Shown here: positions 2,146 through 22,679 of the stretch, in pieces
Layout: every line of letters starts with the position of its first letter
How positions within the stretch are numbered: the stretch's first letter is position 1
Source: Escherichia phage EC128
Sequence record: ON210139.1
Strand: one strand, 5' to 3'
Length of the DNA: 64,000 bases
Position numbers and translations under genes: made by a program
The notes under the pieces: model-generated
The model's input: only the letters and a program-made list of their open reading frames with translations
What the model was told of the DNA's origin: nothing
The model's database searches: none

Positions 2146-2152
2146 GGTAAGC

Positions 2153-4247: not shown

Positions 4248-4256
4248 GAAGGTGAT

Positions 4257-4838: not shown

Positions 4839-4847
4839 TGCAAAAGT

Positions 4848-4855
4848 TATAAATA
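4848..4855 (+). promoter_or_regulatory. late promoter TATAAATA
   Basis: exact TATAAATA 26 nt upstream of ATG 4881. Confidence 0.4.
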
Positions 4856-4880
4856 GGTTTATCTAACTAAAGGGGTATAT

Positions 4881-5093
4881 ATGCTACAATTAACTGAAAA
4901 GCAACTTCGCAATCTTACTGTTCTTCAATTAGATGAAATTCGTAGGGAAGTTGGAAATATCATTTCAGCTTTGCGTCGAGAAGTATCACTCAACCAATCT
5001 CCGGCAGACTATACTAGATTGCGAAATTTTGAAAAATACCTTGATAAAGTTAAGGCCGTGCACCGGCACAAAGTAAATACAGGACAAAAATGA
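4881..5093 (+). CDS. hypothetical protein
   Basis: 70-aa ORF with SD AAAGGGG. Confidence 0.5.
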
Positions 5094-5105
5094 TAGGAGG
5101 CCTTT

Positions 5106-5399
5106 ATGGCCTTAAAAGCAACGGCACTATTTGCCATGCTAGGATTAGCGTTTGCTTTATCTCCACCAATTGAAGCGAATGTCGATCCTCATTTTGATAA
5201 ATTTATGGAATCTGGTATTAGACACGTTTATATGCTTTTTGAAAACAAAAGCGTAGAATCATCTGAACAGTTCTATAGTTTTATGCGAACGACTTATAAA
5301 AATGACCCGTGCTCTTCCGATTTTGAATGTATAGAGCGAGGCGCGGAGATGGCACAATCATACGCTAGAATTATGAACATTAAATTGGAGACTGAATGA
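5106..5399 (+). CDS. rI: lysis-inhibition antiholin RI
   Basis: 97 aa, N-terminal signal-anchor, located just after tk as in T4. Confidence 0.65.
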   Translation: MALKATALFAMLGLAFALSPPIEANVDPHFDKFMESGIRHVYMLFENKSVESSEQFYSFMRTTYKNDPCSSDFECIERGAEMAQSYARIMNIKLETE

Positions 5400-5782
5400 A
5401 ATTCAGCGACTTTTCACAAAGTGGAAAACCTTCAAAGGCAGATGAATACTTAGGTTTATTAATGGCTGCACAAGCTTATTTTCATTCTGCGCATTTTGAA
5501 ACTAAAAGTTATGCTAGACACAAAGCATACGATTTTATTTTCTCTGAGTTGCCAGATTTGATTGATAAATTTGGTGAGCAATATTTGGGGTATTCTGGTA
5601 GAAAATACACGCCTTCTATTCCAGATGCCAGTAAACTTCCTACCGACACAATTAAAATGATTGATCGCATACTAGACCAATCTAACAGCATTTACAAAGA
5701 AATGCCTCCAGCCATTCAAAGCACGATAGATGATATTACTGGAATGTTTTACCAGAGCAAATATCTTCTTTCCCTCGAATAA
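5396..5782 (+). CDS. hypothetical protein
   Basis: 128-aa ORF, ATGA overlap with rI. Confidence 0.55.
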
Positions 5783-5787
5783 CATTA

Positions 5788-5810
5788 GTCTCCTTCGGGA
5801 GACTTTTTTC
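5788..5810 (+). terminator. rho-independent terminator (UUCG tetraloop)
   Basis: GTCTCC-TTCG-GGAGAC followed by TTTTTT. Confidence 0.65.
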
Positions 5811-5819
5811 ATTTTACCG

Positions 5820-5850
5820 GTTTACTTTCCATTTGAGCTGTGATACTATA
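5820..5850 (+). promoter_or_regulatory. early promoter
   Basis: GTTTAC 5820-5825, extended -10 TGTGATACTAT. Confidence 0.5.
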
Positions 5851-5877
5851 CAACCATCGGATAAAGAGGAGAACATC

Positions 5878-6066
5878 ATGAAAATTGAAGCACTTAATCA
5901 AGAAGGAAATATCTACGTCATCATTAACGGCGATTTTTTCGTCGACATGGATGAAGTTACCAGTGAAGAACTTGAAGAACTTCTTAAGAAACGTTATGAT
6001 ATGTGTGATGAAGCTGCAACTCATATGGCGTGTGCAATATTCTCTCTTTCATATGTGGTGGAATAA
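5878..6066 (+). CDS. small acidic protein (paralog family)
   Basis: SD GAGGAG then ATG 5878; 62 aa. Confidence 0.5.
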
Positions 6067-6269
6067 TGATTAGTATCGAACAAGCAGATAAAATTAAAGA
6101 ATTGGTAGCTTTAATTCGCAAAGCAGATGAGGAACTTAGTGACTTTGCTTGGTTTTCGGCAGGCATTGCAAATAAAGGTATTGAAGAATTTGAAGCTAAA
6201 GTTGATAATGCTGTAGAAGCTTTAGATATGTTTCTTGATGAAATTATCGATCACAATACGAGAGTTTAA
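6066..6269 (+). CDS. small acidic protein (paralog family)
   Basis: TAATG overlap; 67 aa. Confidence 0.5.
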   Translation: MISIEQADKIKELVALIRKADEELSDFAWFSAGIANKGIEEFEAKVDNAVEALDMFLDEIIDHNTRV

Positions 6270-6271
6270 GT

Positions 6272-6466
6272 ATGCTGACACACGAACAGTTTGAAAAAAT
6301 CATTAAATTAGCACGTGATGTTGAAATAGATTCATATCAATTAGCAGTTGAGCATTGTGAAGGATATTCATACGAAGGTATAGCAGCAGCTAAAAGAGAT
6401 TTGGATGAATCTAAAGCTAAGTTAGTTCAATATCTTGAAATGATTAGGTGGAATAATGAAAACTGA
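6272..6466 (+). CDS. small acidic protein (paralog family)
   Basis: 64-aa ORF. Confidence 0.5.
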   Translation: MLTHEQFEKIIKLARDVEIDSYQLAVEHCEGYSYEGIAAAKRDLDESKAKLVQYLEMIRWNNEN

Positions 6467-6629
6467 AAAGCAGATGTTTTTAATGAAGCTAATTGAAGAA
6501 TATGCTAATGCAGTTTCTGACTATGAGTGTTCTTCTCGTGAAAGGGGTATAGCTTTCGCAAAGGAAGAAATGAAAATCATGGTTGATGCTCATACAAAGC
6601 TTCAGAATTTTATCGAAAACGTCATTTAA
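6456..6629 (+). CDS. small acidic protein (paralog family)
   Basis: 57-aa ORF, hand-translated; overlaps upstream gene end. Confidence 0.4.
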   Translation: MKTEKQMFLMKLIEEYANAVSDYECSSRERGIAFAKEEMKIMVDAHTKLQNFIENVI

Positions 6630-6631
6630 TG

Positions 6632-6661
6632 GTTTACAAGTTGGCAAGGTTATGGTATAGT
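6632..6661 (+). promoter_or_regulatory. early promoter
   Basis: GTTTAC 6632-6637, TATAGT 6656-6661. Confidence 0.55.
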
Positions 6662-6793
6662 AATCTTGTCAACTGCCAAGGAGAAGAGAATGAAAGTTTT
6701 GTTTGTTGTGTATGTGATGATTCAATATAATTACCCAATGTTTACTTATAATCTGGTGAACAACATTATTGATATTATTCAAAGGAGTATGTA

Positions 6794-6979
6794 ATGACAA
6801 GTGAGCAGGCTTTTAAATTAAGAGAATTAATTGAGACGTATAGTAAAGCTGTTCATACATCAACAATTATTGATGAATCAGCTTTCTCCGGACATGCTAA
6901 CAAGATTAAATACAAAACTCTTATGGAAGAAGCTAAAGTAAATCTTGATTCTTATATTGAAACTTTAATTGGTAAATAA
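6794..6979 (+). CDS. small acidic protein (paralog family)
   Basis: 61-aa ORF. Confidence 0.5.
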   Translation: MTSEQAFKLRELIETYSKAVHTSTIIDESAFSGHANKIKYKTLMEEAKVNLDSYIETLIGK

Positions 6980-7113
6980 TATGAAAGCTGTAATTGAAAC
7001 AACTGATTTGTTCGGTGACCTAGTTATCGAAAAACGCGGTAATGTATACGTTCTGACGCAGGAAGACGATAGTATTACTATTCTTCCTATGGAACTGGCT
7101 GCGATTTTATCTT

Positions 7114-7509
7114 ATGCTCCCTCAAACTAATATTACAGGTGACCTCCAAGTTCGTTTTTATCGTGGCCTTTACGGCGGTAATATTGAAACTGAATTTATG
7201 TGTCTTTCTATCAACAATTGGGCAACATTCGTTGCCAAGGTGAAAGAATTCTTAGAATCTGAAACAGTCGAAACACCCGAAAAGGCTAAACTTCAATGGG
7301 CTAAAGATCGCGGTGCTAACATTATTAATCCAGTAGCTGCAAACTATACTACGACTTTGGATGTCAAGACTTCTTATGAAGATGGCGATGTCGTACTTGT
7401 TCGCCAAAATGATGATTCTCGAGCACATATTGTCACATTTACCAAAGACGAAGCTATTGCGCTAAAGACTTATCTTGATTCTGTCATTCCAACTATGATT
7501 TCAAAGTGA
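7114..7509 (+). CDS. hypothetical protein
   Basis: 131-aa ORF. Confidence 0.5.
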   Translation: MLPQTNITGDLQVRFYRGLYGGNIETEFMCLSINNWATFVAKVKEFLESETVETPEKAKLQWAKDRGANIINPVAANYTTTLDVKTSYEDGDVVLVRQNDDSRAHIVTFTKDEAIALKTYLDSVIPTMISK

Positions 7510-7515
7510 GGAAAT

Positions 7516-8043
7516 ATGTTTATTTCAAGTGGAAGTGGTTTAATTCGTGTTGAATTTAAAAATGACATCTTTCTTATTCAAGGAGATGATATTATTAAAA
7601 TGAGTTATGACGAAATCAAGAAAATTTGTCATGCTCTTGAAAGTCATGGAAAAGTGAACGCTGTTATTGATATTGGCGATTTATGGGTGACACTTTATGA
7701 AGTATCCGAAGGATTTAACATTGAAGATGAAAATAACATTTTAGCTATTGATAAAAGAAGTGATTTGTTTGATGTATTAAAAGTTTATGAACAGTCAAAT
7801 GGCGGAAGAAAAGCTGCATTGATTTATCAAAAACCACATTCATGTGGAACTGCTTCAATCATTTCAAATATTGAAGATGAAGATGAAGTTGATACTTATA
7901 TGTGTGTTTTAAAAGCTGGTGGTGACCGTCATCCGGATTTTATTTCTATTCGTCAAAACAATGGAGAAATTTCATTATCAAAATCAGAAGCTGAAGCTAT
8001 GATTAAGTATTTAACAACTGTTACGCCTTCAATGAAAGGATAA
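7516..8043 (+). CDS. hypothetical protein
   Basis: 175-aa ORF with SD GAGGAAATATG. Confidence 0.55.
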   Translation: MFISSGSGLIRVEFKNDIFLIQGDDIIKMSYDEIKKICHALESHGKVNAVIDIGDLWVTLYEVSEGFNIEDENNILAIDKRSDLFDVLKVYEQSNGGRKAALIYQKPHSCGTASIISNIEDEDEVDTYMCVLKAGGDRHPDFISIRQNNGEISLSKSEAEAMIKYLTTVTPSMKG

Positions 8044-8045
8044 TT

Positions 8046-8507
8046 ATGATTATTAATGAAAACTCTTGGCACTATAAATTATTCAAATTGTTTAACGATG
8101 AATGGCAACGACCTAAGACACTATGCGCATATTTTTGGTCTATTGCTATTCCTACATTTTTCGTTTCTATTTTTGGATGTGCTATACTCGTAGGGCTAAC
8201 AATTATTTGCGCAGAAAGCCTACAGCGTTGGCTTATTTTTGGTAGTTTATGGACTTTGCTTCCATCAGCATTTATACTTGCGCTTTTGGTTGTTTTACTT
8301 ATTATCGGTTCATTTGTTATTCCTGCACATTTGCGTGAAAAATATAAAGATTATAAATGGAAAAAGGATTATGCTTTACACGTAGAAAATATTGATAGGG
8401 CGTATAAAGGTTTACCTCCTATTCAACCAAAGAAATCGATTATCGTTGAATTTTTAAAAGCTCGTAAAGCTAAAGTATGTCCTGTTATTGAATATAAGGC
8501 TGAATGA
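8046..8507 (+). CDS. integral membrane protein
   Basis: 153 aa, three hydrophobic segments. Confidence 0.55.
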   Translation: MIINENSWHYKLFKLFNDEWQRPKTLCAYFWSIAIPTFFVSIFGCAILVGLTIICAESLQRWLIFGSLWTLLPSAFILALLVVLLIIGSFVIPAHLREKYKDYKWKKDYALHVENIDRAYKGLPPIQPKKSIIVEFLKARKAKVCPVIEYKAE

Positions 8508-9517
8508 TGAAAACAGTAATGAAAAGTTATTTTGGCAGTCATCTTTATGGAACTTCTACTCCAGAATCTGATGTAGATTTTAAAGAAATCTTTGTTCCTC
8601 CTGCTCGCGATATTCTTATCGGAAGTGTCAAAGAGCACATGAGTAAAAACACTAACAACACATCATCTAAAAACACTAAAGATGATATTGACCATGAACT
8701 ATACAGTCTTAAATATTTCTTTAAATTAGCAGCAGATGGTGAAACTGTAGCATTGGATATGCTTCACACTCCACCTGAACTAGTGGTTAAATCTGATTTG
8801 CCTGATGTGTGGAAGTTTATTCAAGACAACCGTTCTCGTTTTTATACGACTAACATGAAATCATATTTAGGATATGTCCGCAAGCAAGCTTCTAAATACG
8901 GTGTCAAGGGTTCTCGTTTGGCTGCATTACGTGATGTATTGAAAGTAGTTAATCAAATCCCTGAGCAATGGATTGATTACCAAGAAGATGGTTCTATTAA
9001 GCAGCGTCGCACTAAAGTTGAAGATATTAAGCATCGTCTTCCAGAAAACGAATTCTGTGAATGGGTGTTCCATAATCATGAGAAAACAGGCCCACAAACG
9101 TTCTACACTGTGTTGGGTCGTAAATATCAGACAACTCTTTCTCTTATTGAGCTTAAGCAGTCACTGAACAAATTAGATGCTGAATACGGTGAACGTGCTC
9201 GTAAGGCCGAAGCCAATGAAGGTATTGACTGGAAAGCTCTGAGCCATGCCTGCCGTGGTGGACTTCAACTATTGGAAATTTACAAAACTGGCGACTTGAT
9301 TTATCCACTCCAAGATGCTCCATTTATTCTCGACGTGAAGTTGGGTAAACATCCATTTAAAACAGTTCAAGAGTTTTTGGAAGATGTGGTCGATCAAGTA
9401 GAAGCAGCATCTACTGAAGCTTCTAAGAACGGTATGCCTAAAACAGTAGACATGAGTTTCTGGGATGACTTCCTTGAGAAGGTCTATCTTGAAAACCACC
9501 GAAGTTATTATAAATGA
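8504..9517 (+). CDS. nucleotidyltransferase-fold protein
   Basis: Pol-beta-type motif GSHLYGTSTPESDVDF; 337 aa. Confidence 0.55.
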   Translation: MMKTVMKSYFGSHLYGTSTPESDVDFKEIFVPPARDILIGSVKEHMSKNTNNTSSKNTKDDIDHELYSLKYFFKLAADGETVALDMLHTPPELVVKSDLPDVWKFIQDNRSRFYTTNMKSYLGYVRKQASKYGVKGSRLAALRDVLKVVNQIPEQWIDYQEDGSIKQRRTKVEDIKHRLPENEFCEWVFHNHEKTGPQTFYTVLGRKYQTTLSLIELKQSLNKLDAEYGERARKAEANEGIDWKALSHACRGGLQLLEIYKTGDLIYPLQDAPFILDVKLGKHPFKTVQEFLEDVVDQVEAASTEASKNGMPKTVDMSFWDDFLEKVYLENHRSYYK

Positions 9518-9519
9518 TA

Positions 9520-9546
9520 GGGAGCCTTCGGGCTCCCTTTTTTTAT
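9520..9546 (+). terminator. rho-independent terminator (UUCG tetraloop)
   Basis: GGGAGCC-TTCG-GGCTCCC then T-run. Confidence 0.65.
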
Positions 9547-9646
9547 TTCAAAAATTTTTCACAAAACGGTTTACAAGCATAAAGCTTTATGGTACTATAC
9601 AACTATCAACTACTGATACAGATTTGGAGAATAAAATGAAAACTGT
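9543..9646 (+). repeat. promoter-early/stem-loop (PeSL-like) module, copy A
   Basis: includes promoter GTTTAC 9569-9574; 9591-9642 identical to 38255-38306. Confidence 0.6.
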
Positions 9647-10604
9647 AACTATCAATAAGGGTATCTACTTCGGTAAAGAAATCTCTGGAACTTTTGAGCT
9701 CTTAGGTGAATGGTTCCCAGATAATGCTCCGGTAGATGCACAAGGAGATGGTAAAGTTTTTGTTGAAATTGACGGTAAGCGTCGCGGTGTTTGGGTTTAC
9801 AAATCAGACATTTCATATGATGGTGTAAAAGTTGAAGAAGTTAAAGAATCATATGAAGATATGAAAACCCGCATTAATAAAAGATTTAATGTTATGGGAA
9901 TGATGACGAATGGTATTATTAACGGAAACATTCGTTCATTAATTATCTCTGGTGCGGCGGGTATTGGTAAAACGTATTCTTTAGATAAAGCTTTGAATAA
10001 AGCAAATGATAATGGATACATTGAATATAAAAGCATTAACGGTAAAATCTCCGGTATCGGTCTTTATGAACAACTTTGGAATAATCGTGAAGAGAATTCT
10101 GTCCTTTTGATTGATGATGTGGATGTTTTCTCTGATATGGACATTCTTAATCTTCTGAAAGCTGCTCTGGACACTGGAGAGACCCGTAAAGTCTGCTGGA
10201 GCACTGCATCTTCTTACTTAGAAGAAAAAGGCATTGAGCGTGAGTTTGAATTTAAAGGAACGATTGTTTTTATCACAAACGTTGACATTGACCGCGAATT
10301 AGACCGTGGTACTAAACTTGCTCCACATTTACAAGCATTAGTGTCCCGCTCAGTTTATTTAGATTTGGGTGTTCACACTAATGAAGAAATTATGGTCAGG
10401 GTTGAAGATGTTATTCTTTCAACTGACATGATGCAAAAGCGCGGTCTTTCTGATGAAGAAACTTATAAAGCATTATCATGGATGAAAGTCAATGTTAATC
10501 GTTTACGCAATGTTTCACTGCGTACTGCTCTTTATCTTGCTGACTTTATTATGACCGACAAAAACGGTTGGGAAGAAATCGCTGAAACAGTATTATTAAA
10601 ATGA
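9636..10604 (+). CDS. AAA+/P-loop ATPase
   Basis: Walker A SGAAGIGKT, Walker B LLIDDVD; start trimmed to ATG 9636. Confidence 0.65.
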   Translation: MKTVTINKGIYFGKEISGTFELLGEWFPDNAPVDAQGDGKVFVEIDGKRRGVWVYKSDISYDGVKVEEVKESYEDMKTRINKRFNVMGMMTNGIINGNIRSLIISGAAGIGKTYSLDKALNKANDNGYIEYKSINGKISGIGLYEQLWNNREENSVLLIDDVDVFSDMDILNLLKAALDTGETRKVCWSTASSYLEEKGIEREFEFKGTIVFITNVDIDRELDRGTKLAPHLQALVSRSVYLDLGVHTNEEIMVRVEDVILSTDMMQKRGLSDEETYKALSWMKVNVNRLRNVSLRTALYLADFIMTDKNGWEEIAETVLLK

Positions 10605-11320
10605 AAAAATATTTTACTATCTATAAAACTGAAATATTAAATTTAAAGACAGGTATTAAGAAATACTATTATGGTCGACATATAACTAATAATATCAATG
10701 ATTCGTATGTTGGTAGTGGAAATTATATAGAACGTGTAAAAGTGTCAAATGACCACATATTATCAAAAACGGTTTTAGAAGTTTTTGATAATTATGATAA
10801 AATGGTACAAGCTGAAATATTATATATCATGGCAGGTAAATTGAAATATGGGAAAAACTGTGTTAACCTGTCATACGGGGGTGAAGGAGGAAAGGTTGCA
10901 GATGAAACTAGGATAAAATGCAAAAAGCATTCTATAAATTTATGGAAAAATCCTAATCATATACAGCATATGAAGAAAAAGATGAAAGAGGTCACATCCA
11001 CGCCGGAAGCTAAATTAAACACTTCAATAAAAACTTCGCAACGATATAAGGACCCGGTTTTTGTTAGAAAAGTTAGTAATATTATTAAAAAGAAACTAAG
11101 CAATCCTGTAGTAAAAGAAAAGCATATTAATGGAATTAAAGCTGCAAAGCGTTCTCATTTAACTATATGGCAGTATGAAGATGAATTATTCGAGCTCTGG
11201 AAAGAAACTAAATGTGGATGGAGAAAATTTACAAAGGAAGCTATAAAACACGGATATCCAAATGAACCGTATCGTAGTATGGTATCAACTTTTCAGAAAA
11301 GACATTTAGAAGAATCCTAA
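10601..11320 (+). CDS. free-standing GIY-YIG-like homing endonuclease (possibly mobD by position)
   Basis: N-terminal YYYGRH...YVGSG, repeated NUMOD-like motifs; paralog of 21849, 40071, 49456. Confidence 0.6.
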   Translation: MKKYFTIYKTEILNLKTGIKKYYYGRHITNNINDSYVGSGNYIERVKVSNDHILSKTVLEVFDNYDKMVQAEILYIMAGKLKYGKNCVNLSYGGEGGKVADETRIKCKKHSINLWKNPNHIQHMKKKMKEVTSTPEAKLNTSIKTSQRYKDPVFVRKVSNIIKKKLSNPVVKEKHINGIKAAKRSHLTIWQYEDELFELWKETKCGWRKFTKEAIKHGYPNEPYRSMVSTFQKRHLEES

Positions 11321-11402
11321 GACAAAAAGGCAGTTCAGAAATAGATTATATGGACTGCCATTAAAAAGATGACTAGAATTAAACTGGTGAATGGAGGTAG
11401 TG

Positions 11403-11705
11403 ATGTTATACTCAAAGGCTCGTGAAATTTACGAAACTAAGATTAAAGAAGCTGTATTTCAGTTCGCAACGACAATGCGATGGACAAATGATTGGGAGTA
11501 TTCAAAAAATCATAAGAAGCCCATGGTGACAAGAAAGGCTCATATGTTAGTGTTAATAGACCGTGAGCAGATTAAAGCCCGAGAAGCCCTCCAGAATCAT
11601 AAAAAGGCTGCCTTTGAATGGTTTATGGATAACACTGCTCCTGAGACTAAGAAAGCGGTAAGCGCGTGGTTCAGTGGAAAAAATTGTGAAAGAAGTTTCT
11701 TTTAG
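11403..11705 (+). CDS. hypothetical protein
   Basis: SD GGAGGT then ATG 11403; 100 aa. Confidence 0.5.
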   Translation: MLYSKAREIYETKIKEAVFQFATTMRWTNDWEYSKNHKKPMVTRKAHMLVLIDREQIKAREALQNHKKAAFEWFMDNTAPETKKAVSAWFSGKNCERSFF

Positions 11706-11765
11706 TGGTTTACAAGACCGTTCCTCTGTGGTACTATACAACTATCAACTACGGAGGAACAGAAA
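11703..11765 (+). repeat. PeSL-like module, partial copy
   Basis: GTTTACAAG...GGTACTATACAACTATCAACTAC shared with copies A and B. Confidence 0.45.
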
Positions 11766-12293
11766 ATGAACGCTAAAGATATTTTCAACCTGGTAAATTA
11801 CAACGATGGTAAATTTAAATCAGAAGCACAAAGCAAGTTCTTTAATGACATCTCAATCGGAGGTGAAATCACTGTTAATGGAGGACAAATTTACAAATCC
11901 CGTTGGAATTGGATCGTTATTATCGATGAGATTGGTATTGTAGAAATTTACAAGAATACGAATAAAAATCGTACATTACACTGGTCTCGTGATACTAACG
12001 AACAGTACAAAAAGGATAAAGCATCTAAATTATCTCGTGTAACTCAAGAAGATATTGAGTTCATCAAGAAAGATATTTTAATGTATGATAACTTAATTGC
12101 TGAAGAGCAAGCTGTTATTGATAAATTTGACGAAATTAAAGCTTCTCGTGAAATTCCTGATTTTATGAAAGAATCAGTAAATGAACGATACTCTCTCATT
12201 TCAGAGCGTATTGAAACTTACAAAAAGCAAAGAGCTGAACGCCAAAATACTCTTCGGAAGTTTGAAGAACGGTTAAAGACGGTACTCGCATAA
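11766..12293 (+). CDS. hypothetical protein with C-terminal coiled coil
   Basis: 175-aa ORF. Confidence 0.55.
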   Translation: MNAKDIFNLVNYNDGKFKSEAQSKFFNDISIGGEITVNGGQIYKSRWNWIVIIDEIGIVEIYKNTNKNRTLHWSRDTNEQYKKDKASKLSRVTQEDIEFIKKDILMYDNLIAEEQAVIDKFDEIKASREIPDFMKESVNERYSLISERIETYKKQRAERQNTLRKFEERLKTVLA

Positions 12294-12348
12294 CTGCTTT
12301 ATACCAAGGATGGTATAATGGTTCTAAGCCCTTTTAATTGAGATTATT

Positions 12349-12750
12349 ATGAAACAGTTGATAATTAAAAGATTGAATTTATTGATATGTTGTTTATGTA
12401 TAGTAATTGCATATGGTTATTATGCTATTAATGATTATATGCATTATAAAGATTATGATGTTACTGTAGTTAATACCCTTACAGGAACTCAAGGAAAGGG
12501 GTCTAGTTTATCGTTTATTGCTGTATATGAACTAAATGACGGTTATAGATTTAGTGAATATATTTCACCAGAGATGTATTCTTCAATAGAAAAAGGCGAT
12601 AATATTACTGTAAGTTTACGTCCTTTCGACGTAAAACAGACATGGTTTGATAATATTGTTTGGTTCTTTGGAATGGTATTAGTTCAATCTGTGTGTGGTG
12701 CTTATATAGTCTTTTCAATCTTATTCTGTGTATTTAGTAAAATTGAGTGA
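12349..12750 (+). CDS. membrane protein
   Basis: 133 aa, hydrophobic N and C termini. Confidence 0.5.
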   Translation: MKQLIIKRLNLLICCLCIVIAYGYYAINDYMHYKDYDVTVVNTLTGTQGKGSSLSFIAVYELNDGYRFSEYISPEMYSSIEKGDNITVSLRPFDVKQTWFDNIVWFFGMVLVQSVCGAYIVFSILFCVFSKIE

Positions 12751-12757
12751 GGAAAAT

Positions 12758-13645
12758 ATGTCAGCGGTAATTAATAATGTCAATGCAGTAATTAAATCTT
12801 TAGTTAATAAAAAATCAAATGAATGGACTGTACTTCAACGCGACAAGTCAGATAAATTTTTTCATAAATTTAACCCAGTACTAAATTTAAATGTTATTGA
12901 TAAAGATGTTCACGCCGAAATTTTAGATAAGTTTAAAGTTGATATTGGATTTGGATTAGAAAAACATTTACAACGAACAAACGAGTCTGGAATGCTTTTA
13001 TCTAATCGCATCATGAAAGCCCTTAATAAAATTGGAGCATTGTCTCGCATTAACGCGAGTGAAATTCTTCGCAATTATAATAAAGGATATGACCTTTATG
13101 GCCGACTAATGCCAAAATTATCATTCGACCAAATGATTGCGGATTTGTGGGAAAATCAACGACGATTATTAGCATTAGGTGCTCGATTAGCTAAAGGTCT
13201 AGATAAACAAATGATTTTTAAAACTAATAATACAGAAGACCTTAAATGCTTTAAATTTAGTACTCGTGGAGATGATTATTACGTCAGAGCTCACTCTACA
13301 GATTATGTTAATATGGGGCATCATCTCTGTTTAGCTTTTGAAGTTTTAAAAGAAGCTGGAACATTAGAATATGTGTCTGGTGCTAAATGCCCGATTGGTT
13401 CAAGTTGTATTTTAATTTATCGCCCGGATGAATCCAGTTCATCTAAATTGCCTACAAAACCTGCACCAGTTCGTAGTAACGAAAAACATTCTGAACAAAT
13501 TGATTATTTTAATAAGCAAATTGAAGAGCTGAATATTTCTATTCAACGATATGACGATGAAATTTTCAGACTATCTGGATTGAGTAGTAAAGCTAAATCT
13601 GAACGTGAAAAATTAATTAAAATTGTTGATTTACTTAAATCTTAA
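12758..13645 (+). CDS. coiled-coil protein, paralog 1 of 4
   Basis: SD GAGGAAAATATG; C-terminal heptad-rich tail. Confidence 0.55.
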   Translation: MSAVINNVNAVIKSLVNKKSNEWTVLQRDKSDKFFHKFNPVLNLNVIDKDVHAEILDKFKVDIGFGLEKHLQRTNESGMLLSNRIMKALNKIGALSRINASEILRNYNKGYDLYGRLMPKLSFDQMIADLWENQRRLLALGARLAKGLDKQMIFKTNNTEDLKCFKFSTRGDDYYVRAHSTDYVNMGHHLCLAFEVLKEAGTLEYVSGAKCPIGSSCILIYRPDESSSSKLPTKPAPVRSNEKHSEQIDYFNKQIEELNISIQRYDDEIFRLSGLSSKAKSEREKLIKIVDLLKS

Positions 13646-13653
13646 GGAACACC

Positions 13654-14673
13654 ATGAAAACTCGTTCTCAAATTGAAGATATGGTTCGTAATGCCAGTTA
13701 TACTCGTGATGTTATGACATTTTTGTGCCAAAATAATTTAGACCCTGATAAAGTTAATCGTGATATTCACTTTAAATATCTAAATAGCATTGAATTGTTA
13801 CGTCATTTTAGTAAAGCGGGGTATATTACACAAATGACTGCTCGTGAGCAGCTCACCGATTTCTGTAAAACTATTGATTATAAAAATCCTCTATTTGTTC
13901 AAGGCGTTGGTCAGAGTAAGGTCGATTTATCATCTGGATTTTTCAATCCAAATCATTATCGTCTTGAATGGAGATTTATTGCTCTATTCCGTAAACAATT
14001 AAAGCAAATTTTGTCTACTGCTAGTCGATTAAAAGGTTCTGATATTAACTTAAAGAATCTGAAATTTGATGGTTATACTCTTCAAATGGAAGTAAGACCA
14101 TCTAAAGAAAATAATAGAACTGCACGAATTAGCTTTAAGCCTAATACTAAAAATTCTCTTTCAATTTGTGAATGCCTTAAATCGCAGTTGACAGAAGCAT
14201 TTAAGTATATGGATGTTGTTGCTGCTGTTCAATCTAAGATTTTACCTCGTTTTGAGCGAAATTGGGAACATACAACAACATATGAACTTGATATGATCGT
14301 TTCATTTAAATACGATTTTTTGAGAAAGGACGAAGTCCCGCAAGAGAAAAAGCAAGAAGTGCAAGATAACTTAAATTTATCCAATTACTCATCAAACGAT
14401 CCTAAATTTTGGATGTATAGTTCAGGTAATAAAGATGCATGGAAATTCAATAAAGTGAATTTTCTTCCTGTTGAAAATCCGAGTCTTAAACCTGTTGAAA
14501 AATGGCACGCGGATGCGATTGAGAAGTCTATCAAGGCAGTAGATGATGAACTCGTTAAAGCAACTAATGAAGTGTTAGAAGCTGAAAAGATGTTAGAAAA
14601 AGCTCAAGAAAAAGTCAAAAATCTCGCGAAGCAACGTTCTAAACTGAACAATGCACTAAATGCACTAAACTAG
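13654..14673 (+). CDS. coiled-coil protein, paralog 2 of 4
   Basis: 339 aa; shares FR.F.KQ.K.ILS.AS.L motif. Confidence 0.6.
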   Translation: MKTRSQIEDMVRNASYTRDVMTFLCQNNLDPDKVNRDIHFKYLNSIELLRHFSKAGYITQMTAREQLTDFCKTIDYKNPLFVQGVGQSKVDLSSGFFNPNHYRLEWRFIALFRKQLKQILSTASRLKGSDINLKNLKFDGYTLQMEVRPSKENNRTARISFKPNTKNSLSICECLKSQLTEAFKYMDVVAAVQSKILPRFERNWEHTTTYELDMIVSFKYDFLRKDEVPQEKKQEVQDNLNLSNYSSNDPKFWMYSSGNKDAWKFNKVNFLPVENPSLKPVEKWHADAIEKSIKAVDDELVKATNEVLEAEKMLEKAQEKVKNLAKQRSKLNNALNALN

Positions 14674-14702
14674 TTTACTTTGCCACAAGGATGTGGTATA
14701 AT
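14673..14702 (+). promoter_or_regulatory. early promoter
   Basis: GTTTACTTTGCCACAAGGATGTGGTATAAT; near-identical copy at 63742. Confidence 0.6.
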
Positions 14703-14730
14703 GTTCTTACTTTCTACTGAGGAGATTATT

Positions 14731-15732
14731 ATGACTCGTAACGAATATATCAAATCATTCAATAGCGTTATTGATGATAAAGTTAAACCTGTGTTTAGTC
14801 AGAATAGTGTTATTTCCATTATCAATCAATGGCTAAATAATATTGATGTAAGCATTGTTTCTTCCAGCAAATTTATTCACGAAGTTCGTGAAATTTCTAG
14901 TCGTACAGATAAAGATGACATTAAGAAAACCTTTAAAGGGTCTCGTCTTCTTTCATACTTAGTCAACAGAGATATTCTTGGTAAATTTGGGAAAGAAATT
15001 AAACGAACTAAAGATGTAATAGGATACAGTTGGTTCGGTGATGTTAATTCTTATCATCTTAATAATAAAGAAGACCCTGAGAATATTTTTACTCGTCGTT
15101 GGATTAGTAATTTTAGACTTTTCAAGAAGCAAATTCTAAAATCAGCTTCTAAATTATGCTATGGTGATTATCGTCAAATCCATCCTTGGGCTTCTGATAT
15201 GATTATCATAAAAGAATATGAGCTTGATAAAAATAAAGCAGCTATTTTTGTGAATTATGAATTTTTTACACCAGAAGCTAATCAAAAGAACATTAATAAA
15301 TTTTTCTCAATTGCTAGCGATATAACTCGTCAGTTAGAGACCGCATTACTTTGTATGGAAACAGTAGAAAATATTCATACTTATCCTTTTAAGAATATAT
15401 GCGGTTGGGAAGGATATAAAATTGTAGTTAGTCTCCGTGAAGTAAAGTGTGCGTACTCACCGACTGATAAAGAAATTTACCAACAAAAATGTGATGAAAT
15501 TGTGAATACTCCTAAAGAAGAAACTACCCTTGAGGAACTAATGGAATGTCTTGACGATTCGCCTGAACCAGTAGAAATTCGTCCAGAAGTTATTGCACTA
15601 GAAAAAGCTTATAAAGAAGTTCTAGAAATTTCTAATAAAGCGCAGAAAGAATATGAGCAGGCTAAAAGGATTTGGGAAGAATCTGTTAATCGCCTGGATC
15701 GTCTTGAACAAGCTTTACAGTTAATTAAGTAA
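14731..15732 (+). CDS. coiled-coil protein, paralog 3 of 4
   Basis: start trimmed to ATG 14731 after SD GAGGAG. Confidence 0.6.
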   Translation: MTRNEYIKSFNSVIDDKVKPVFSQNSVISIINQWLNNIDVSIVSSSKFIHEVREISSRTDKDDIKKTFKGSRLLSYLVNRDILGKFGKEIKRTKDVIGYSWFGDVNSYHLNNKEDPENIFTRRWISNFRLFKKQILKSASKLCYGDYRQIHPWASDMIIIKEYELDKNKAAIFVNYEFFTPEANQKNINKFFSIASDITRQLETALLCMETVENIHTYPFKNICGWEGYKIVVSLREVKCAYSPTDKEIYQQKCDEIVNTPKEETTLEELMECLDDSPEPVEIRPEVIALEKAYKEVLEISNKAQKEYEQAKRIWEESVNRLDRLEQALQLIK

Positions 15733-15784
15733 TTTAAAGCCAAGGATGGCTCGGAGTATAAATCATTAACCAAGTGAGAAGAAC

Positions 15785-16714
15785 ATGAAAACTCGTAAAC
15801 ATTATATTGATTATTTTGACAGCCTTATTACTAAACATCGTAATTATCAGATCGGGCACAGAGCAGTAATCAATAATATTCTTCGTGATTTCCTTCAATA
15901 TGTTGGCCAGGAAAATCATATCTGTAAAGATACTCAGAACGCTTATTCTCATTCGTTAGGCAATTTGCTTCAATGGTTTAAACGTTCTCGTCTGTTATCT
16001 TCTACTGTAGCTCGTGATAACATTGAAAACTTTATGAAGCCGAGCTTCATTAAATCTGCGACATCTATAACCGATTTGGTTGAATTTACTATTGTTAACG
16101 ATGTTAAAAAGACCCATTTGGCTGATTGGTTATCTACCATTCCCGAAACTAAATTTGCTGATAAATTCGCTTGTCAATTCAATGACCAAGTGAATATGCT
16201 TTTTAAGCATGCTCGTAAACTATTTACCGCGGGCGATGACCGTACAAATACAGTTCATGTTAAGGATTGGGTTATTGCTGATGAAGTAACACATAAGCCA
16301 GGTGGTTCATCAGTATTAATTAATATCCAGGTTCCTTATTATTACTCACGTAATCTCGGCACCATGAACTCTAGAGAAATTAATAAGCACAACAAAACTA
16401 TTCGTTCGTTGTCTTATAAACTCCGCATGATGTTAAAAATCATGGACGTAGTAGAAATGTATGACGAAACCGAAGATAATGGTTCAATGCTGTACAGTTC
16501 ACGCATTCTAATTAAACTGAAGAACCCTAATACATATAAGCCAGTTGTAAAAGAACCTAAAGCAGAAAAGGCTGATAACCTGAGTGAAGAACGCGAATAT
16601 CTCAAATCTCGACTGGTTGAAGTTGAAGCCCAGATTGCCGAACACACCAAATTGTTAAAAGCTCTTAATGCAAAAGCAAATGGTTTACGTAATGCTATTG
16701 AGGTACTGAAATGA
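15785..16714 (+). CDS. coiled-coil protein, paralog 4 of 4
   Basis: 309 aa, C-terminal coiled coil. Confidence 0.6.
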   Translation: MKTRKHYIDYFDSLITKHRNYQIGHRAVINNILRDFLQYVGQENHICKDTQNAYSHSLGNLLQWFKRSRLLSSTVARDNIENFMKPSFIKSATSITDLVEFTIVNDVKKTHLADWLSTIPETKFADKFACQFNDQVNMLFKHARKLFTAGDDRTNTVHVKDWVIADEVTHKPGGSSVLINIQVPYYYSRNLGTMNSREINKHNKTIRSLSYKLRMMLKIMDVVEMYDETEDNGSMLYSSRILIKLKNPNTYKPVVKEPKAEKADNLSEEREYLKSRLVEVEAQIAEHTKLLKALNAKANGLRNAIEVLK

Positions 16715-17007
16715 AAAAGCGCTTATTAGAAGATATTGCCGAAGCTTCAGATTTTCCTGAATGGACTCCATGCGCTGGGTTTGATAAAGGGCTGCTAGTT
16801 ACCGACGATTTAGACTTTAAACCTCCAGCATGGGATGCCATTATGGCTATGGTTAGTCGTCGTGAGCAATCTTCTAAGAATGTTCCAAACTGCCCAAAGT
16901 GTGGTACTGAACAGGTACAATTAGTTCATTGGCAGACTAGTATTCTTCGTTATAAATGTCGTCATTGCAAACACCGATTTAACCGAGAAGAAAATGACCA
17001 AGCGTAA
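16711..17007 (+). CDS. zinc-ribbon protein
   Basis: CPKCG...CRHCKH; ATGA overlap. Confidence 0.5.
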
Positions 17008-17236
17008 AGAATATATGGAGATTGCTGAAAAGGCAGTCCGTGAATTAGCAATAGCGTATTATAATGAACATGGTAAATTTCCTGATAGATACAGCGTGCT
17101 TAAATCTGCTTTAACTCGTTCATATAAAAATATGCTATCAGAAGTAAGTGATATTATATACAAACATAAAGAACAAACAGGCCAAAGTCTTGATTACGAC
17201 GAGACTTTTAAACAAGTATTAGGAATTAAGGAATAA
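16994..17236 (+). CDS. hypothetical protein
   Basis: 80-aa ORF. Confidence 0.5.
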
Positions 17237-17237
17237 T

Positions 17238-17501
17238 ATGTTTAAAGTATATGGTTATGATAGCAACATCCACAAATGCGTGTATTGCGATAATGCAAAA
17301 CGTCTTTTGACCGTGAAGAAACAGCCGTTTGAATTTATCAACATTATGCCGGAAAAAGGTGTTTTTGATGATGAGAAAATCGCTGAGCTTCTGACTAAAC
17401 TAGGTCGTGATACTCAAATCGGCTTAACAATGCCTCAGGTATTTGCTCCTGATGGAAGTCATATTGGTGGATTTGACCAATTGCGGGAATACTTTAAATG
17501 A
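17238..17501 (+). CDS. nrdC: glutaredoxin/thioredoxin NrdC
   Basis: 87 aa, active site CVYC. Confidence 0.85.
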   Translation: MFKVYGYDSNIHKCVYCDNAKRLLTVKKQPFEFINIMPEKGVFDDEKIAELLTKLGRDTQIGLTMPQVFAPDGSHIGGFDQLREYFK

Positions 17502-17713
17502 TGCTCGAAGGAACTGATTATATCCATGATTACCGCGGAAGCGCGGTATATGTAGGTGATGAAGTTGTAGTTTATTATGGGTATGGAACTTTGATGACAG
17601 CAAAGGTTATTCAAATTAAAAATAATCGTGCTAAACTTGAAGTTTATTATTCTAATGGTGAAAAGTCTATTTCTAAGTGGAAATATGGCGATTGTATGGT
17701 CAAACTGGGGTAA
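17498..17713 (+). CDS. hypothetical protein
   Basis: 71-aa ORF, ATGA overlap. Confidence 0.5.
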   Translation: MMLEGTDYIHDYRGSAVYVGDEVVVYYGYGTLMTAKVIQIKNNRAKLEVYYSNGEKSISKWKYGDCMVKLG

Positions 17714-17715
17714 AT

Positions 17716-17886
17716 ATGATTTACGATATTAATGTAGCAAGAGCTCCGTCAATGGTTACTATTCCTGCTAAAGAACTAGATCGTCTTCATAAAATTGAAG
17801 AACTTCTTTGGGAAATTGAATCTGATTTGCCATCAGGATTAGAATCCTGGATTGATTATGAAGAACTTAATAAGCTTCGGGGTTAA
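17716..17886 (+). CDS. hypothetical small protein
   Basis: SD GGGG then ATG 17716; 56 aa. Confidence 0.4.
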   Translation: MIYDINVARAPSMVTIPAKELDRLHKIEELLWEIESDLPSGLESWIDYEELNKLRG

Positions 17887-18008
17887 ACCTTGGTGGGCGG
17901 CTAGATGGGAAACTGTAGAGCCAGAGCCGGAAGAACCGGTTTACACTGATGAAGAAACAGTATATAATGAACCAACGATAAATGACTTAATTGATATGGA
18001 GATGGGAC

Positions 18009-18494
18009 ATGATTACAGTAGATAAGTGGTTTAGAATTAATCGTGCTGATACAGGGCTATGTAATTACTGGCCGGAACTTAGTGCAGGTACTGTCTTTAA
18101 AGTTCGTGAACTTGCAAAAGAATGTGAAGATGATATAGAGCCTGACACTGGAATTGTTGAAATTGAACTTTCCGACGGAAAGATTATTAATATCTATGAT
18201 AAGCCAATTACATATTGGTGCTTATGGAATACTGAATCAGTCGAAAATGGCGAAATTGAAGAAGTTGTAGAGCGAACTAATCAAGTTGTTCAGAAGCCTA
18301 AAGCCGATTTTCAAGGTGAACGTATTTCATACGCACTAGCTAAATTAGCTGCGCAAGAAAATAACGATGGCTATGAAGGTAACCTGATGCAAGCTGCCGC
18401 AGAGTACATTGAATGGCTTGAAACTCAAATTTCTTTTTCTGACCAAAAGATTCGGCAATATAAGCGATTGAATCAAATGTTTTACAATACTTGA
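18009..18494 (+). CDS. pin: Pin protease inhibitor (tentative)
   Basis: 161 aa from ATG 18009; lies between nrdC and 49 as in T4. Confidence 0.45.
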   Translation: MITVDKWFRINRADTGLCNYWPELSAGTVFKVRELAKECEDDIEPDTGIVEIELSDGKIINIYDKPITYWCLWNTESVENGEIEEVVERTNQVVQKPKADFQGERISYALAKLAAQENNDGYEGNLMQAAAEYIEWLETQISFSDQKIRQYKRLNQMFYNT

Positions 18495-18505
18495 AAATAA
18501 TAAAT

Positions 18506-18530
18506 ACCCTTATCTATTTAAGGTAAGGGT
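18506..18530 (+). promoter_or_regulatory. hairpin sequestering the gene 49 ribosome-binding site
   Basis: ACCCTTA...TAAGGGT 7-bp stem ends 5 nt before ATG 18536. Confidence 0.4.
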
Positions 18531-18535
18531 TTATT

Positions 18536-19009
18536 ATGTTATTGACTGGCAAATTATATAAAAAAGAAAAACAGAAATTTTATGATGCACAAAATGGTAA
18601 ATGCTTAATTTGCCAACGAGAACTAAATCCTGACGTTCAAGCTAATCACCTCGACCATGACCATGAATTAAATGGACCAAAAGCAGGAAAGGTACGTGGA
18701 TTGCTTTGTAATCTATGCAATGCCGCAGAAGGTCAAATGAAGCATAAATTTAATCGTTCTGGCTTAAAGGGACAGGGTGTTGATTATCTTGAATGGTTAG
18801 AAAATTTACTTACTTACTTAAAATCCGATTACACCCAAAATAATATTCACCCTAACTTCGTTGGAGATAAATCAAAGGAATTTTCTCGTTTAGGAAAAGA
18901 GGAAATGATGGCTGAGATGCTTCAAAGAGGATTTGAATATAATGAATCTGACACCAAAACACAATTAATAGCTTCATTTAAGAAGCAGCTTAGAAAGAGT
19001 TTAAAATGA
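18536..19009 (+). CDS. 49: endonuclease VII (Holliday junction resolvase)
   Basis: 157 aa, His-Me finger HLDHDH...N, four Cys. Confidence 0.85.
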   Translation: MLLTGKLYKKEKQKFYDAQNGKCLICQRELNPDVQANHLDHDHELNGPKAGKVRGLLCNLCNAAEGQMKHKFNRSGLKGQGVDYLEWLENLLTYLKSDYTQNNIHPNFVGDKSKEFSRLGKEEMMAEMLQRGFEYNESDTKTQLIASFKKQLRKSLK

Positions 19010-19543
19010 CAATTGAAAAAGAAATTGAAGGATTGATTCATAAAACTAATAAAGACCTTTTGAACGAGAATGCTAATAAAGATTCTCGTGTTTTTCCAAC
19101 TCAACGGGACCTTATGGCTGGTATTGTGTCTAAACACATTGCCAAAAATATGGTCCCGTCTTTTATTATGAAAGCGCATGAAAGCGGAATTATCCATTTC
19201 CATGATATTGATTATTCCCCTGCTCTTCCATTTACTAATTGCTGTTTAGTAGATTTAAAAGGAATGCTTGAGAACGGATTTAAGCTCGGTAATGCACAGA
19301 TTGAAACTCCTAAATCAATTGGCGTTGCTACTGCAATTATGGCACAAATTACTGCACAGGTTGCTTCCCATCAATATGGCGGAACGACTTTTGCGAATGT
19401 AGATAAAGTACTTTCTCCTTATGTTAAACGCACCTATGCAAAACATATTGAAGATGCAGAAAAATGGCAAATCGCCGATGCGTTGAATTATGCTCAATCT
19501 AAAACAGAAAAAGACGTATACGATGCATTCCAAGCTTATGAGT
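19006..19543 (+). CDS. nrdD: anaerobic ribonucleotide reductase NrdD, exon 1
   Basis: ends at U of AUGAGU, which pairs with intron guide GCUCAU; exons sum to 605 aa. Confidence 0.85.
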
Positions 19544-19747
19544 TAACGTAAGTCAAGCTCATGTAAAATCTGCCTAAAACGGGAAACTCTCACTGAGACA
19601 ATCCGTTGCTAAATCAGCGGTAGCTGTAAATGCCCAACGACTATCCCTGATGAATGTAAGGGAGTAGGGTCAAGCGACCCGAAACGGCAGACAACTCTTA
19701 GAGTTGAAGATATAGTCTGAACTGCATGGCGACATGCAGCTGTTTAT

Positions 19748-19771
19748 CCTCGTATAAATACGAATACGAGG
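19748..19771 (+). promoter_or_regulatory. late promoter inside an SD-sequestering hairpin
   Basis: CCTCGTA-TAAATACGAA-TACGAGG; TATAAATA 19753-19760; SD GAGG in 3' arm. Confidence 0.55.
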
Positions 19772-19778
19772 TGAAACG

Positions 19779-20555
19779 ATGAAATGGAAATTAAGAAAAA
19801 GCTTAAAAATTGACAATTCTGTAGCATTTACCTATATGGTAAGATTTCCTGATAAGTCTTTTTATATAGGTTTTAAAAAATTCAAAACTATATATGGTAA
19901 AGATACAAATTGGAAAGAATACAATTCGTCATCTAAGCTTGTTAAAGAAAAGCTTAAAGATTATAAAGCTAAGTGGATAATTCTTCAAGTTTTTGATTCT
20001 TATGAATCGGCCCTTAAACATGAAGAAATGCTTATTAGGAAACATTTTAATAACGAATTTATTCTTAATAAATCTATAGGTGGATATAAATTTAACAAAT
20101 ATCCGGATTCAGAAGAACATAAGCAAAAACTTAGTAATGCCCATAAAGGTAAAATCTTATCTTTAAAACATAAAGATAAGATACGAGAGAAATTGATTGA
20201 GCATTATAAAAATAATAGTAGAAGTGAAGCTCATGTTAAAAATAATATTGGTAGTAGAACGGCTAAAAAGACTGTTTCTATAGCTTTAAAATCCGGAAAT
20301 AAATTTAGAAGTTTTAAATCAGCTGCAAAATTTCTTAAATGCTCTGAAGAACAGGTTAGTAATCATCCAAATGTTATAGATATAAAAATAACAATTCATC
20401 CCGTCCCAGAATATGTTAGAATAAATGACAATATCTATAAATCATTTGTGGATGCTGCTAAAGATTTAAAACTCCACCCAAGTCGTATTAAAGATTTGTG
20501 CTTAGATGACAATTATCCAAATTACATTGTTTCATATAAACGGGTAGAGAAGTAG
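19779..20555 (+). CDS. I-TevII: intron-encoded homing endonuclease I-TevII
   Basis: 258-aa ORF inside the intron; divergent GIY-YIG N-terminus. Confidence 0.75.
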   Translation: MKWKLRKSLKIDNSVAFTYMVRFPDKSFYIGFKKFKTIYGKDTNWKEYNSSSKLVKEKLKDYKAKWIILQVFDSYESALKHEEMLIRKHFNNEFILNKSIGGYKFNKYPDSEEHKQKLSNAHKGKILSLKHKDKIREKLIEHYKNNSRSEAHVKNNIGSRTAKKTVSIALKSGNKFRSFKSAAKFLKCSEEQVSNHPNVIDIKITIHPVPEYVRINDNIYKSFVDAAKDLKLHPSRIKDLCLDDNYPNYIVSYKRVEK

Positions 20556-20576
20556 CGAACTCTACTGAACACATTG

Positions 20577-21856
20577 ATGAAGTGAACACGTTATTCAGTT
20601 CAAACGGACAAACGCCTTTTGTAACAATTACATTTGGTACGGGAACTGACTGGACTGAACGAATGATTCAGAAAGCAATTTTGAAAAATCGTATTAAAGG
20701 TCTTGGTCGTGATGGGATAACTCCTATTTTCCCTAAGCTTGTTATGTTCGTTGAAGAAGGTGTTAATCTTTATAAAGACGATCCGAACTATGATATTAAG
20801 CAGCTTGCTCTAGAGTGTGCAAGCAAAAGGATGTATCCTGATATTATTTCAGCTAAGAACAATAAAGCTATCACTGGTTCATCTGTTCCTGTTTCTCCAA
20901 TGGGTTGCCGTAGTTTCTTGAGCGTATGGAAAGATTCGACTGGTAATGAAATTCTTGATGGACGTAATAATCTTGGTGTTGTAACACTGAATCTTCCTCG
21001 CATCGCGTTAGATTCTTATATTGGAACACAGTTCAATGAACAGAAATTTGTTGAATTATTCAATGAACGAATGGATTTGTGTTTTGAAGCATTGATGTGT
21101 AGAATTAGTTCCTTAAAAGGAGTTAAAGCTACTGTTGCTCCTATTCTTTACCAAGAAGGTGCATTCGGGGTTCGTCTTAAACCTGATGACGATATAATTG
21201 AGTTATTTAAAAGCGGTAGAAGTTCAGTGTCCCTAGGATACATTGGTATTCACGAATTGAATATTCTTGTTGGTCGTGATATTGGACAAGAAATTTTAAC
21301 TAAAATGAATACTCATCTTAAACAATGGACTGAAAGAACTGGTTTTGCTTTTAGTTTGTATTCTACTCCTGCTGAAAACCTGTGCTATCGCTTCTGTAAA
21401 CTTGATACCGAAAAATATGGAAGTGTAAAAGATGTTACCGATAAAGGCTGGTACACTAACAGTTTCCACGTTTCGGTAGAAGAAAATATTACTCCATTTG
21501 AAAAGATTTCTCGCGAAGCCCCATATCATTTCATTGCGACAGGTGGTCACATTTCTTATGTTGAACTTCCTGATATGAAAAATAACTTAAAAGGTCTTGA
21601 GGCCGTATGGGATTATGCTGCACAACATTTAGATTATTTTGGTGTTAACATGCCGGTAGATAAATGTTTTACATGCGGAAGTACCCATGAAATGACTCCT
21701 ACTGAAAACGGATTTGTTTGTTCTATTTGTGGAGAAACTGATCCTAAAAAGATGAACACCATAAGAAGAACATGCGGATATCTTGGAACTCCTAGCGTTG
21801 TTCCATGGAATTTAGGTAAAATGAAAGAAATGGTAAAACGAGTAAAACATGCATAG
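20577..21856 (+). CDS. nrdD: anaerobic ribonucleotide reductase NrdD, exon 2
   Basis: C-terminal glycyl-radical RRTCGYLG and Zn ribbon CFTCG...CSICG. Confidence 0.85.
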
Positions 21857-22679
21857 GTATTATATAATTTATAAAATAACAAATATAATTAATTCAAAGG
21901 AATATATCGGTGCGCATAGCACCGATAACATAAATGACGGTTATATGGGGTCAGGAACATTGATTCGTGCCGCTTTATTAAAATATGGTAGAAAAAATTT
22001 TAATAAAGAAATTTTACATGTTTTTGATAATGAAAAACAAATGTATGATAAAGAAGCTGAACTTGTAACCGAAGAGTATTGTCTAAAAGAAAATACATAT
22101 AATATTAAACCTGGTGGAAAAGGTGGAACTGCCTATGAACAGACACTTGAACATCGCCGCAAAAATAGTTTAGCAAATAAAGGTAAAAAGAGAACAGAAG
22201 AAACTAAAATAGCTATTTCACGTGCTTTAAAGAAATATAAACGTACGCCAGAGCATCAAGCAAATTTAAATAAAGCCGTAAGCATAGCTATGAAGCGAAA
22301 AGATGTTAGAAGTAAATTAGCTGGAGAGCGGTCTGAGAAAGATAAATTATCTATATCAAACGGTGTTAAAAAATATTACAATTCTTTGAGTGAAGAAGAA
22401 CGCGAACTTCATCGCAAGCGAATTATTGAAGGTAAAAAGAATTCTCCCATGTCATTGGAATCTAGACAAAAGCTTTCAAAAGCTTTAAAAGGACTTCAAG
22501 TTGGTTCAAAAAATCCAATGTATGGAAAAATTTCTCCAACTAGCAAAACCGTTTCAGTTGACGGTATTAAATATGATTCAATTAAAAAGTGCTCAAATGC
22601 CATAAAAGTTTCTAGACATCTTATACTAAAACGCTGTAATTCTACTGATGAAGCTTGGAAAAATTGGATATTATTATGA
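21849..22679 (+). CDS. free-standing GIY-YIG-like homing endonuclease (possibly mobC by position)
   Basis: YYIIYKITN...KEYIGAH, NUMOD repeats, C-terminal H-T-H-like. Confidence 0.65.
   Translation: MHRYYIIYKITNIINSKEYIGAHSTDNINDGYMGSGTLIRAALLKYGRKNFNKEILHVFDNEKQMYDKEAELVTEEYCLKENTYNIKPGGKGGTAYEQTLEHRRKNSLANKGKKRTEETKIAISRALKKYKRTPEHQANLNKAVSIAMKRKDVRSKLAGERSEKDKLSISNGVKKYYNSLSEEERELHRKRIIEGKKNSPMSLESRQKLSKALKGLQVGSKNPMYGKISPTSKTVSVDGIKYDSIKKCSNAIKVSRHLILKRCNSTDEAWKNWILL

Follow-up and report, generated by a model that had tools for sequence, protein, structure and literature searches.

The DNA analysed here, below referred to as the window, is a stretch of 64,000 nucleotides from Escherichia phage EC128 (ON210139.1), and positions are those of the window with the features of interest on the + strand. 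We report that its nrdD gene is interrupted by a group I intron of 1033 nt with a terminal G (19544..20576), which in turn carries the gene for the homing endonuclease I-TevII (19779..20555) preceded by a hairpin with an embedded late promoter motif. An open reading frame with an NrdD-like N-terminus starts at 19006 and runs into a TAA at 19549-19551, and the NrdD frame reopens at 20540 and continues to 21856. On the basis of the ORF list, the joining of the exons and collinearity with nrdD of phage RB3, and for exon 1 also the two-piece nrdD of T4, we delimited exon 1 to 19006..19543 (179 codons plus one nucleotide) and exon 2, including the stop codon, to 20577..21856.

The exons joined at 19543/20577 amount to 1818 nt encoding 605 amino acids plus the stop codon, and the piece removed is 1033 nt long with G as its last base. 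The joined exons align without gaps to the uninterrupted 1818-nt nrdD of RB3 (1759/1818 nt identical), and their translation agrees with RB3 NrdD at 602 of 606 positions, the stop counted. At the junction the window reads GAGT/ATGAAG where RB3 reads GAAT/ATGAAG; since a shift of either intron boundary by a single nucleotide destroys this match, the boundaries are independently fixed. The initial annotation had placed the stop of the nrdD frame at 19549 and its resumption at 20577, and had given an intron of 1033 nt ending in G and an in-frame product of 605 amino acids; all these numbers match the exon join.

The exon bases beside the intron (19538-19543 and 20577-20600) show a cluster of differences relative to the intronless RB3 gene (L004 2368-2417), the insertion site being GAGT/ATGAAGTGAACACGTTATTCAG in the window and GAAT/ATGAAGTAAATACTCTCTTTAG in RB3. 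One of the differing bases is G19542, without which a Watson-Crick pair of the intron helix P1 could not form. Such clustering would fit co-conversion of exon sequence or, alternatively, variation in the I-TevII target.

Searching the window against Rfam, the group I intron family Intron_gpI (RF00028) was matched at 19508-19739 over the whole model (1-253) with a score of 98.2 bits (E 3.7e-24; gathering score 50), and it was the sole Rfam family at or above the gathering score in the 64 kb. The P1 helix is formed by the end of exon 1, AUGAGU (19538-19543), and the internal guide GCUCAU (19557..19562), which constitutes its 3' strand; these pair over 6 bp with U19543.G19557 at the splice site, exactly as had been claimed, and P1 is 100% paired in five related introns. 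The catalytic core, as supported by the Rfam match and the covariation count, extends over 19569..19739. In the hand-drawn structure it comprises P3 (19569-74/19686-91), P4 (19578-83/19602-07), P5 (19588-91/19595-98), P6 (19608-09/19632-33), P6a (19615-18/19623-26), P7 (19639-43/19713-17), P7.1 (19644-47/19660-63), P7.2 (19667-71/19676-80), P8 (19693-97/19701-05) and P9 (19722-28/19733-39), where P3 and P7 form a pseudoknot.

To evaluate this structure, pairs were counted on an alignment of five introns: those of the window and T4, two diverged nrdD introns (type B, see below) and that of phage 24-2-1. The regulatory hairpin was excluded from the count, because the type B hairpin is 2 nt off in the MAFFT alignment, and was instead folded for each sequence. 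Over P1 and P3-P9, including the P3/P7 pseudoknot, standard pairs make up 98.9% of the cells, and compensatory changes are present in 20 of the 54 pairs (five introns, three lineages). None of 500 shuffles reached these values, and when the 3' partners were shifted by 1-3 columns no more than two compensatory pairs remained. Although this is a small sample, the covariation signal is unambiguous, with few events that are nevertheless consistent across the five sequences and three lineages. The covariance-model search that had been proposed as a check thus finds a group I core within 19544-20576, and a group I intron in nrdD is supported by the Rfam score, by covariation, by collinearity of the exons with an intronless allele and by identity to the T4 intron (below).

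At the 3' end of the intron, GGUAGAG and CUCUACU form a terminal hairpin (20543..20566; -7.1 kcal/mol) whose loop contains the stop codon of I-TevII (20553-20555); the pairing is kept in the type B intron, where four of the seven pairs are changed on both sides. Just before the terminal G, the sequence ACAUU (20571-20575) is by eye complementary to AAUGU (19653-19657) in the P7.1 loop, and only four of these five pairs are kept in type B. If real, such a long-range contact might draw the distant 3' splice site towards the core.

In a terminator scan, P9 (19722-19739) together with the tail CUGUUUAU (19740-19749) came out as terminator-like. We rejected it as a terminator, since exon 2 downstream must be transcribed and since this stem does not vary among the five introns, where it serves as P9. 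In at least one public phage record, the GenBank record of SA20RB, the P9 equivalent (OL960581.1, L002 1827-1854) is labelled as a "rho-independent terminator", which is probably an annotation artefact.

The ORF within the intron encodes 258 amino acids and was assigned using the ORF list, the T4 record, Pfam and alignment to T4 I-TevII. Its product is identical to T4 I-TevII at 255 of 258 positions and it occupies the same place in the same intron; the substitutions, window versus T4, are D12 for A, H89 for Y and R214 for K. In Pfam, SegE_GIY-YIG scored 23.3 bits, below its cut-off of 25, NUMOD1 scored 23.1 against a cut-off of 22.8 and NUMOD3 18.8 against 20.4. As Pfam alone stays below threshold for GIY-YIG, this assignment rests on orthology to I-TevII and on the T4 annotation. 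The 258-aa ORF that the initial annotation had described as GIY-YIG-like is accordingly I-TevII, its family membership being weak by Pfam and secured through the T4-annotated orthologue. T4 I-TevII is listed as an active endonuclease (Table 1 in PMC2988022).

Phage T4 (AF158101 / NC_000866) has an intron of 1033 nt in the same gene at the same insertion site, and the intron in the window is identical to it at 1025 of the 1033 nt (99.2%), i.e. with eight differences. In the T4 record nrdD is given as a two-piece join and I-TevII is described as "encoded by group 1A intron in nrdD; GIY-YIG family"; the T4 copy also shares the hairpin, the motif TATAAATA and the Shine-Dalgarno (SD) sequence with the window. 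Four of the differences are in the ORF, three of them non-synonymous, and the four outside it are in L6a (19619), L8 (19699), L9 (19730) and the loop of the regulatory hairpin (19761). All differences upstream of the ORF are hence in loops, which is the pattern expected of a working ribozyme, and the T4 nrdD intron has been described as self-splicing (PMC2988022). Judged by sequence, the element is a copy of the T4 nrdD (sunY) intron with I-TevII, and the window derives from a T4-like phage (Tequatrovirus). Since the intron length, the lengths of NrdD and of the endonuclease, and the identity of the latter are all the T4 values, the initial annotation represents the correct recognition of a textbook element rather than a discovery.

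A megablast search of phage genomes with positions 19400-20700 as query matched 693 records. In 24 of these, a single place accounts for at least 80% of the query, i.e. a T4-type intron is present; the 23 full-cover records are 98.7-99.1% identical to the query and include T4, T4T, RB55, RB59, U5 and Yersinia phage PST. Counting copies among the 693 records that match the 1.3-kb nrdD query gives 24 of the T4 type and approximately 40 of type B, a sporadic distribution that would fit mobility of the intron.

Compared to T4, the genome in the window is a mosaic: the last 22 amino acids of NrdD and the endonuclease gene downstream are RB3-like, whereas T4 has its own C-terminus followed by mobC. 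Specifically, nrdD codons 584-605 (approximately 21790-21856) have 26 mismatches per 100 nt to T4 and 3 to RB3, and the switch from T4-like to RB3-like sequence at these codons looks like a mosaic or co-conversion boundary. Between nrdD and nrdG there is a 276-aa seg-like GIY-YIG/NUMOD3 endonuclease ORF (21849-22679, +), which overlaps the last 8 nt of nrdD and occupies the place where T4 has the HNH gene mobC; this segment resembles RB3 and vB_EcoM_112 (98-99%). A T4-type intron together with an RB3-like downstream segment is also present in phages RPN226 and fPS-2.

The type B nrdD intron is found at the identical insertion site in approximately 40 Tequatrovirus records, e.g. vB_EcoM_SA20RB (OL960581) and pSe_SNUABM_01 (NC_054937), with the coordinates 1645-2689 in OL960581.1 (L002) and the same in NC_054937.1 (L003). 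The SA20RB copy measures 1045 nt, and its exons join to 605 amino acids. Type B has the same P1, core architecture and endonuclease gene position as the intron in the window, but is only about 72% identical to it in core and leader (about 78% when the aligned parts of the 1.3-kb query are taken together), many of its core helices carry compensatory changes relative to the window, and its endonuclease is 56% identical to I-TevII. Most type B records annotate nrdD as two separate genes. In unrelated phages, nrdD is also interrupted by related group I introns that share the GCUCAUGUAAAA guide region and core sequences: the intron of Vibrio phage F99 (OZ196423.1, L005 ~1494-2260) has an HNH ORF inserted after the 5' strand of P6, while that of Escherichia phage 24-2-1 (OK181862.1, L006 ~1499-1717) is apparently ORF-less and is located at a different nrdD position.

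Upstream of the I-TevII gene is the regulatory hairpin (19741..19778). Its main stem of 8 bp is formed by CCUCGUAU (19748-19755) and AUACGAGG (19764-19771), and an outer stem of 5 bp (19741-19745/19774-19778) ends at the base directly 5' of the AUG. The 51 nt at 19740-19790 fold with -15.5 kcal/mol (z -5.2), none of 200 shuffles being as stable, and the T4 intron copy gives the same fold. The SD sequence of I-TevII, GAGG (19768..19771), is part of the 3' arm, with 7 nt separating it from the AUG. A pattern search identified the late promoter consensus TATAAATA at 19753..19760, with the first three nucleotides in the 5' arm and the remainder in the loop; the type B intron has retained this motif, which is annotated there as a late promoter. 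Only four copies of TATAAATA are present in the 64 kb while 11 are expected from shuffles, and because the motif is depleted in this way a copy exactly here is not a background event. The initial annotation had described a 7-bp stem with GAGG in the 3' arm and a late promoter in the loop region: the stem and the placement of the SD hold, the stem is one base pair longer than claimed, and the promoter is inside the hairpin, although with its first three nucleotides in the 5' arm "in the loop" is an approximation.

T4 late transcripts usually begin approximately 6 nt past the promoter motif, and from this spacing we infer that late transcription begins near 19766, within the 3' arm. RNA beginning at 19766 would be devoid of the 5' arm of the hairpin, and its first 35 nt have no predicted structure. 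In partition function calculations the probability that the SD is unpaired is 0.000 in read-through RNA (151-nt and 357-nt contexts) and 0.35 in RNA starting at 19764-19768, the late value being no higher due to weak long-range alternative pairing. The suggestion that read-through transcripts hide the ribosome binding site (RBS) while late transcripts expose it is thus borne out by the predicted accessibilities, and the layout is kept in the diverged intron.

In type B, TATAAATA lies inside an 11-bp stem that buries the same GAGG (-17.8 kcal/mol, z -4.6) and that differs from the hairpin in the window by two G.U pairs and an extra inner hairpin. The 5' arm is CCUCGUA in the window and UCUUGUA in type B, the C-to-U changes keeping the pairing as G.U, and in type B the SD is predicted to be unpaired with a probability of 0.001 in read-through transcripts and of 0.26 in late ones. 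That the stem has been kept by way of pairing-preserving changes points to selection on RNA structure.

For T4, the promoters of the three intron endonucleases were located by primer extension, according to the account of Gott et al. 1988 given in PMC2988022. The same source states that each of these endonucleases has a consensus SD, located approximately 8 nt from the AUG and hidden within a very stable structure, and PMC3014915 and PMC2790892 agree with it on mapped promoters and RBS sequestration. The hairpin mechanism of I-TevII is described in reviews as a "similar arrangement", the mutational dissection being that of I-TevI.

A second RBS-sequestering hairpin (18497-18537, +) is situated 1.2 kb upstream, before gene 49 (endonuclease VII, 18536-19009). 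It has a predicted stability of -16.3 kcal/mol (z -4.1), spans the SD together with the AU of the AUG, and was also flagged as terminator-like by the scan. The sequence AATAAATA (18499-18506), given as preceding it, is one mismatch from the late promoter consensus. This arrangement of hairpin and promoter agrees with the known regulation of T4 gene 49 (PMC3014915).

Other readings of these features were considered. The DNA comprising the promoter and hairpin might mainly be an operator through which I-TevII, by virtue of a likeness to its homing site, represses its own late promoter, with the RNA hairpin being secondary; this could also add to translational control. Autorepression has been reported for I-TevI, and a putative operator overlaps the I-TevII promoter (PMC2988022). 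Aligned without gaps, the exon junction and the leader agree at best at 12/16 positions, TATGAGTATGAAGTGA versus TACGAATACGAGGTGA (19759-19774), or at 13/18, but this similarity is weak, given that 6-7% of shuffled sequences do as well, and C19761 in the window (T in T4) loses one of the homing-site matches. The pairing-preserving changes in type B also speak for the RNA structure, and we consider a primarily operator-based function rather unlikely. We assign the same low likelihood to the promoter/hairpin being a dual-purpose element, at once a translation-blocking RNA stem and, as has been suggested for I-TevII, a putative DNA operator for autorepression. If it were, the T-to-C change at 19761, directly after TATAAATA, would retune both functions; C19761 creates an alternative 5-bp pairing, UCGUA/UACGA, that would leave the SD free.

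It appears far less probable that TATAAATA is an inactive chance match, with I-TevII produced at low levels from read-through or absent and the hairpin merely being part of the intron structure. The sequence is AT-rich, as such a reading would have it, but against it are the depletion of the motif in the window, the preservation of its place with respect to stem and SD in an intron lineage with a core of only about 72% identity, and the report, as given in PMC2988022, that the promoters of the T4 intron ORFs were mapped. The least probable of these readings in our estimate, and one to which we give hardly any weight, is that the window holds a decaying copy where splicing is lost or the endonuclease inactive and nrdD is a split pseudogene. 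Homing elements can indeed decay, as in the case of the defunct T4 I-TevIII (PMC2790892), and I-TevII here has three amino acid changes relative to T4; yet all core helices are intact, all changes outside the ORF are in loops, the I-TevII ORF is full length, and both nrdD exons are intact and in frame.

Taken together, we consider it highly probable that the element is a copy of the T4 nrdD intron which self-splices, which is mobile through I-TevII homing, and in which expression of I-TevII is delayed by a promoter-in-hairpin switch. For this joint reading, the identity, boundaries, core, hairpin, promoter motif and difference in SD accessibility come from our computations, and self-splicing, endonuclease activity and mapped promoters from the T4 literature. 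The intron RNA would fold into the P1-P9 core and self-splice, joining 19543 to 20577 to give the mRNA for the 605-aa anaerobic ribonucleotide reductase, with the I-TevII gene carried between the core and the short 3'-terminal hairpin. I-TevII would cut intronless nrdD alleles and in this way allow the intron to spread. In early and middle read-through transcripts from upstream of nrdD, the SD would be locked in the 8-bp (plus 5-bp) hairpin and ribosomes would fail to load. Late in infection, gp55-directed RNA polymerase would initiate at the hairpin-embedded TATAAATA, and the RBS would be free in the resulting RNA, which lacks the 5' arm. By analogy with I-TevI, we also infer that exclusion of ribosomes from the intron may protect splicing. 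Because the I-TevII stop codon is in the 3'-terminal hairpin, a translating ribosome would unfold this hairpin, and an ORF running into it fits the idea of splicing protection.

The same logic, a late promoter within a hairpin that hides the RBS, is known for the T4 td intron with I-TevI and for genes e, soc and 49 (PMC2988022, PMC3014915). The td/I-TevI system differs in gene, sequence and ORF position, the td ORF being looped out of P6, and it is for I-TevI that the mechanism and its role in splicing protection have been tested by mutation. According to PMC2988022, promoter-in-hairpin regulation of the T4 intron endonucleases was already published by Gott et al. 1988.

The feature is thus already known: it belongs to the trio of classic T4 introns, and publications on its endonuclease and delayed-expression switch go back to the late 1980s. 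Its discovery value is therefore small, and it serves instead as a positive control, in that the boundaries, P1, the ORF and the hairpin were recovered from raw sequence. The retention of the promoter-in-hairpin layout in the type B intron, by way of pairing-preserving changes, provides comparative support for a mechanism that has been dissected experimentally only for I-TevI.
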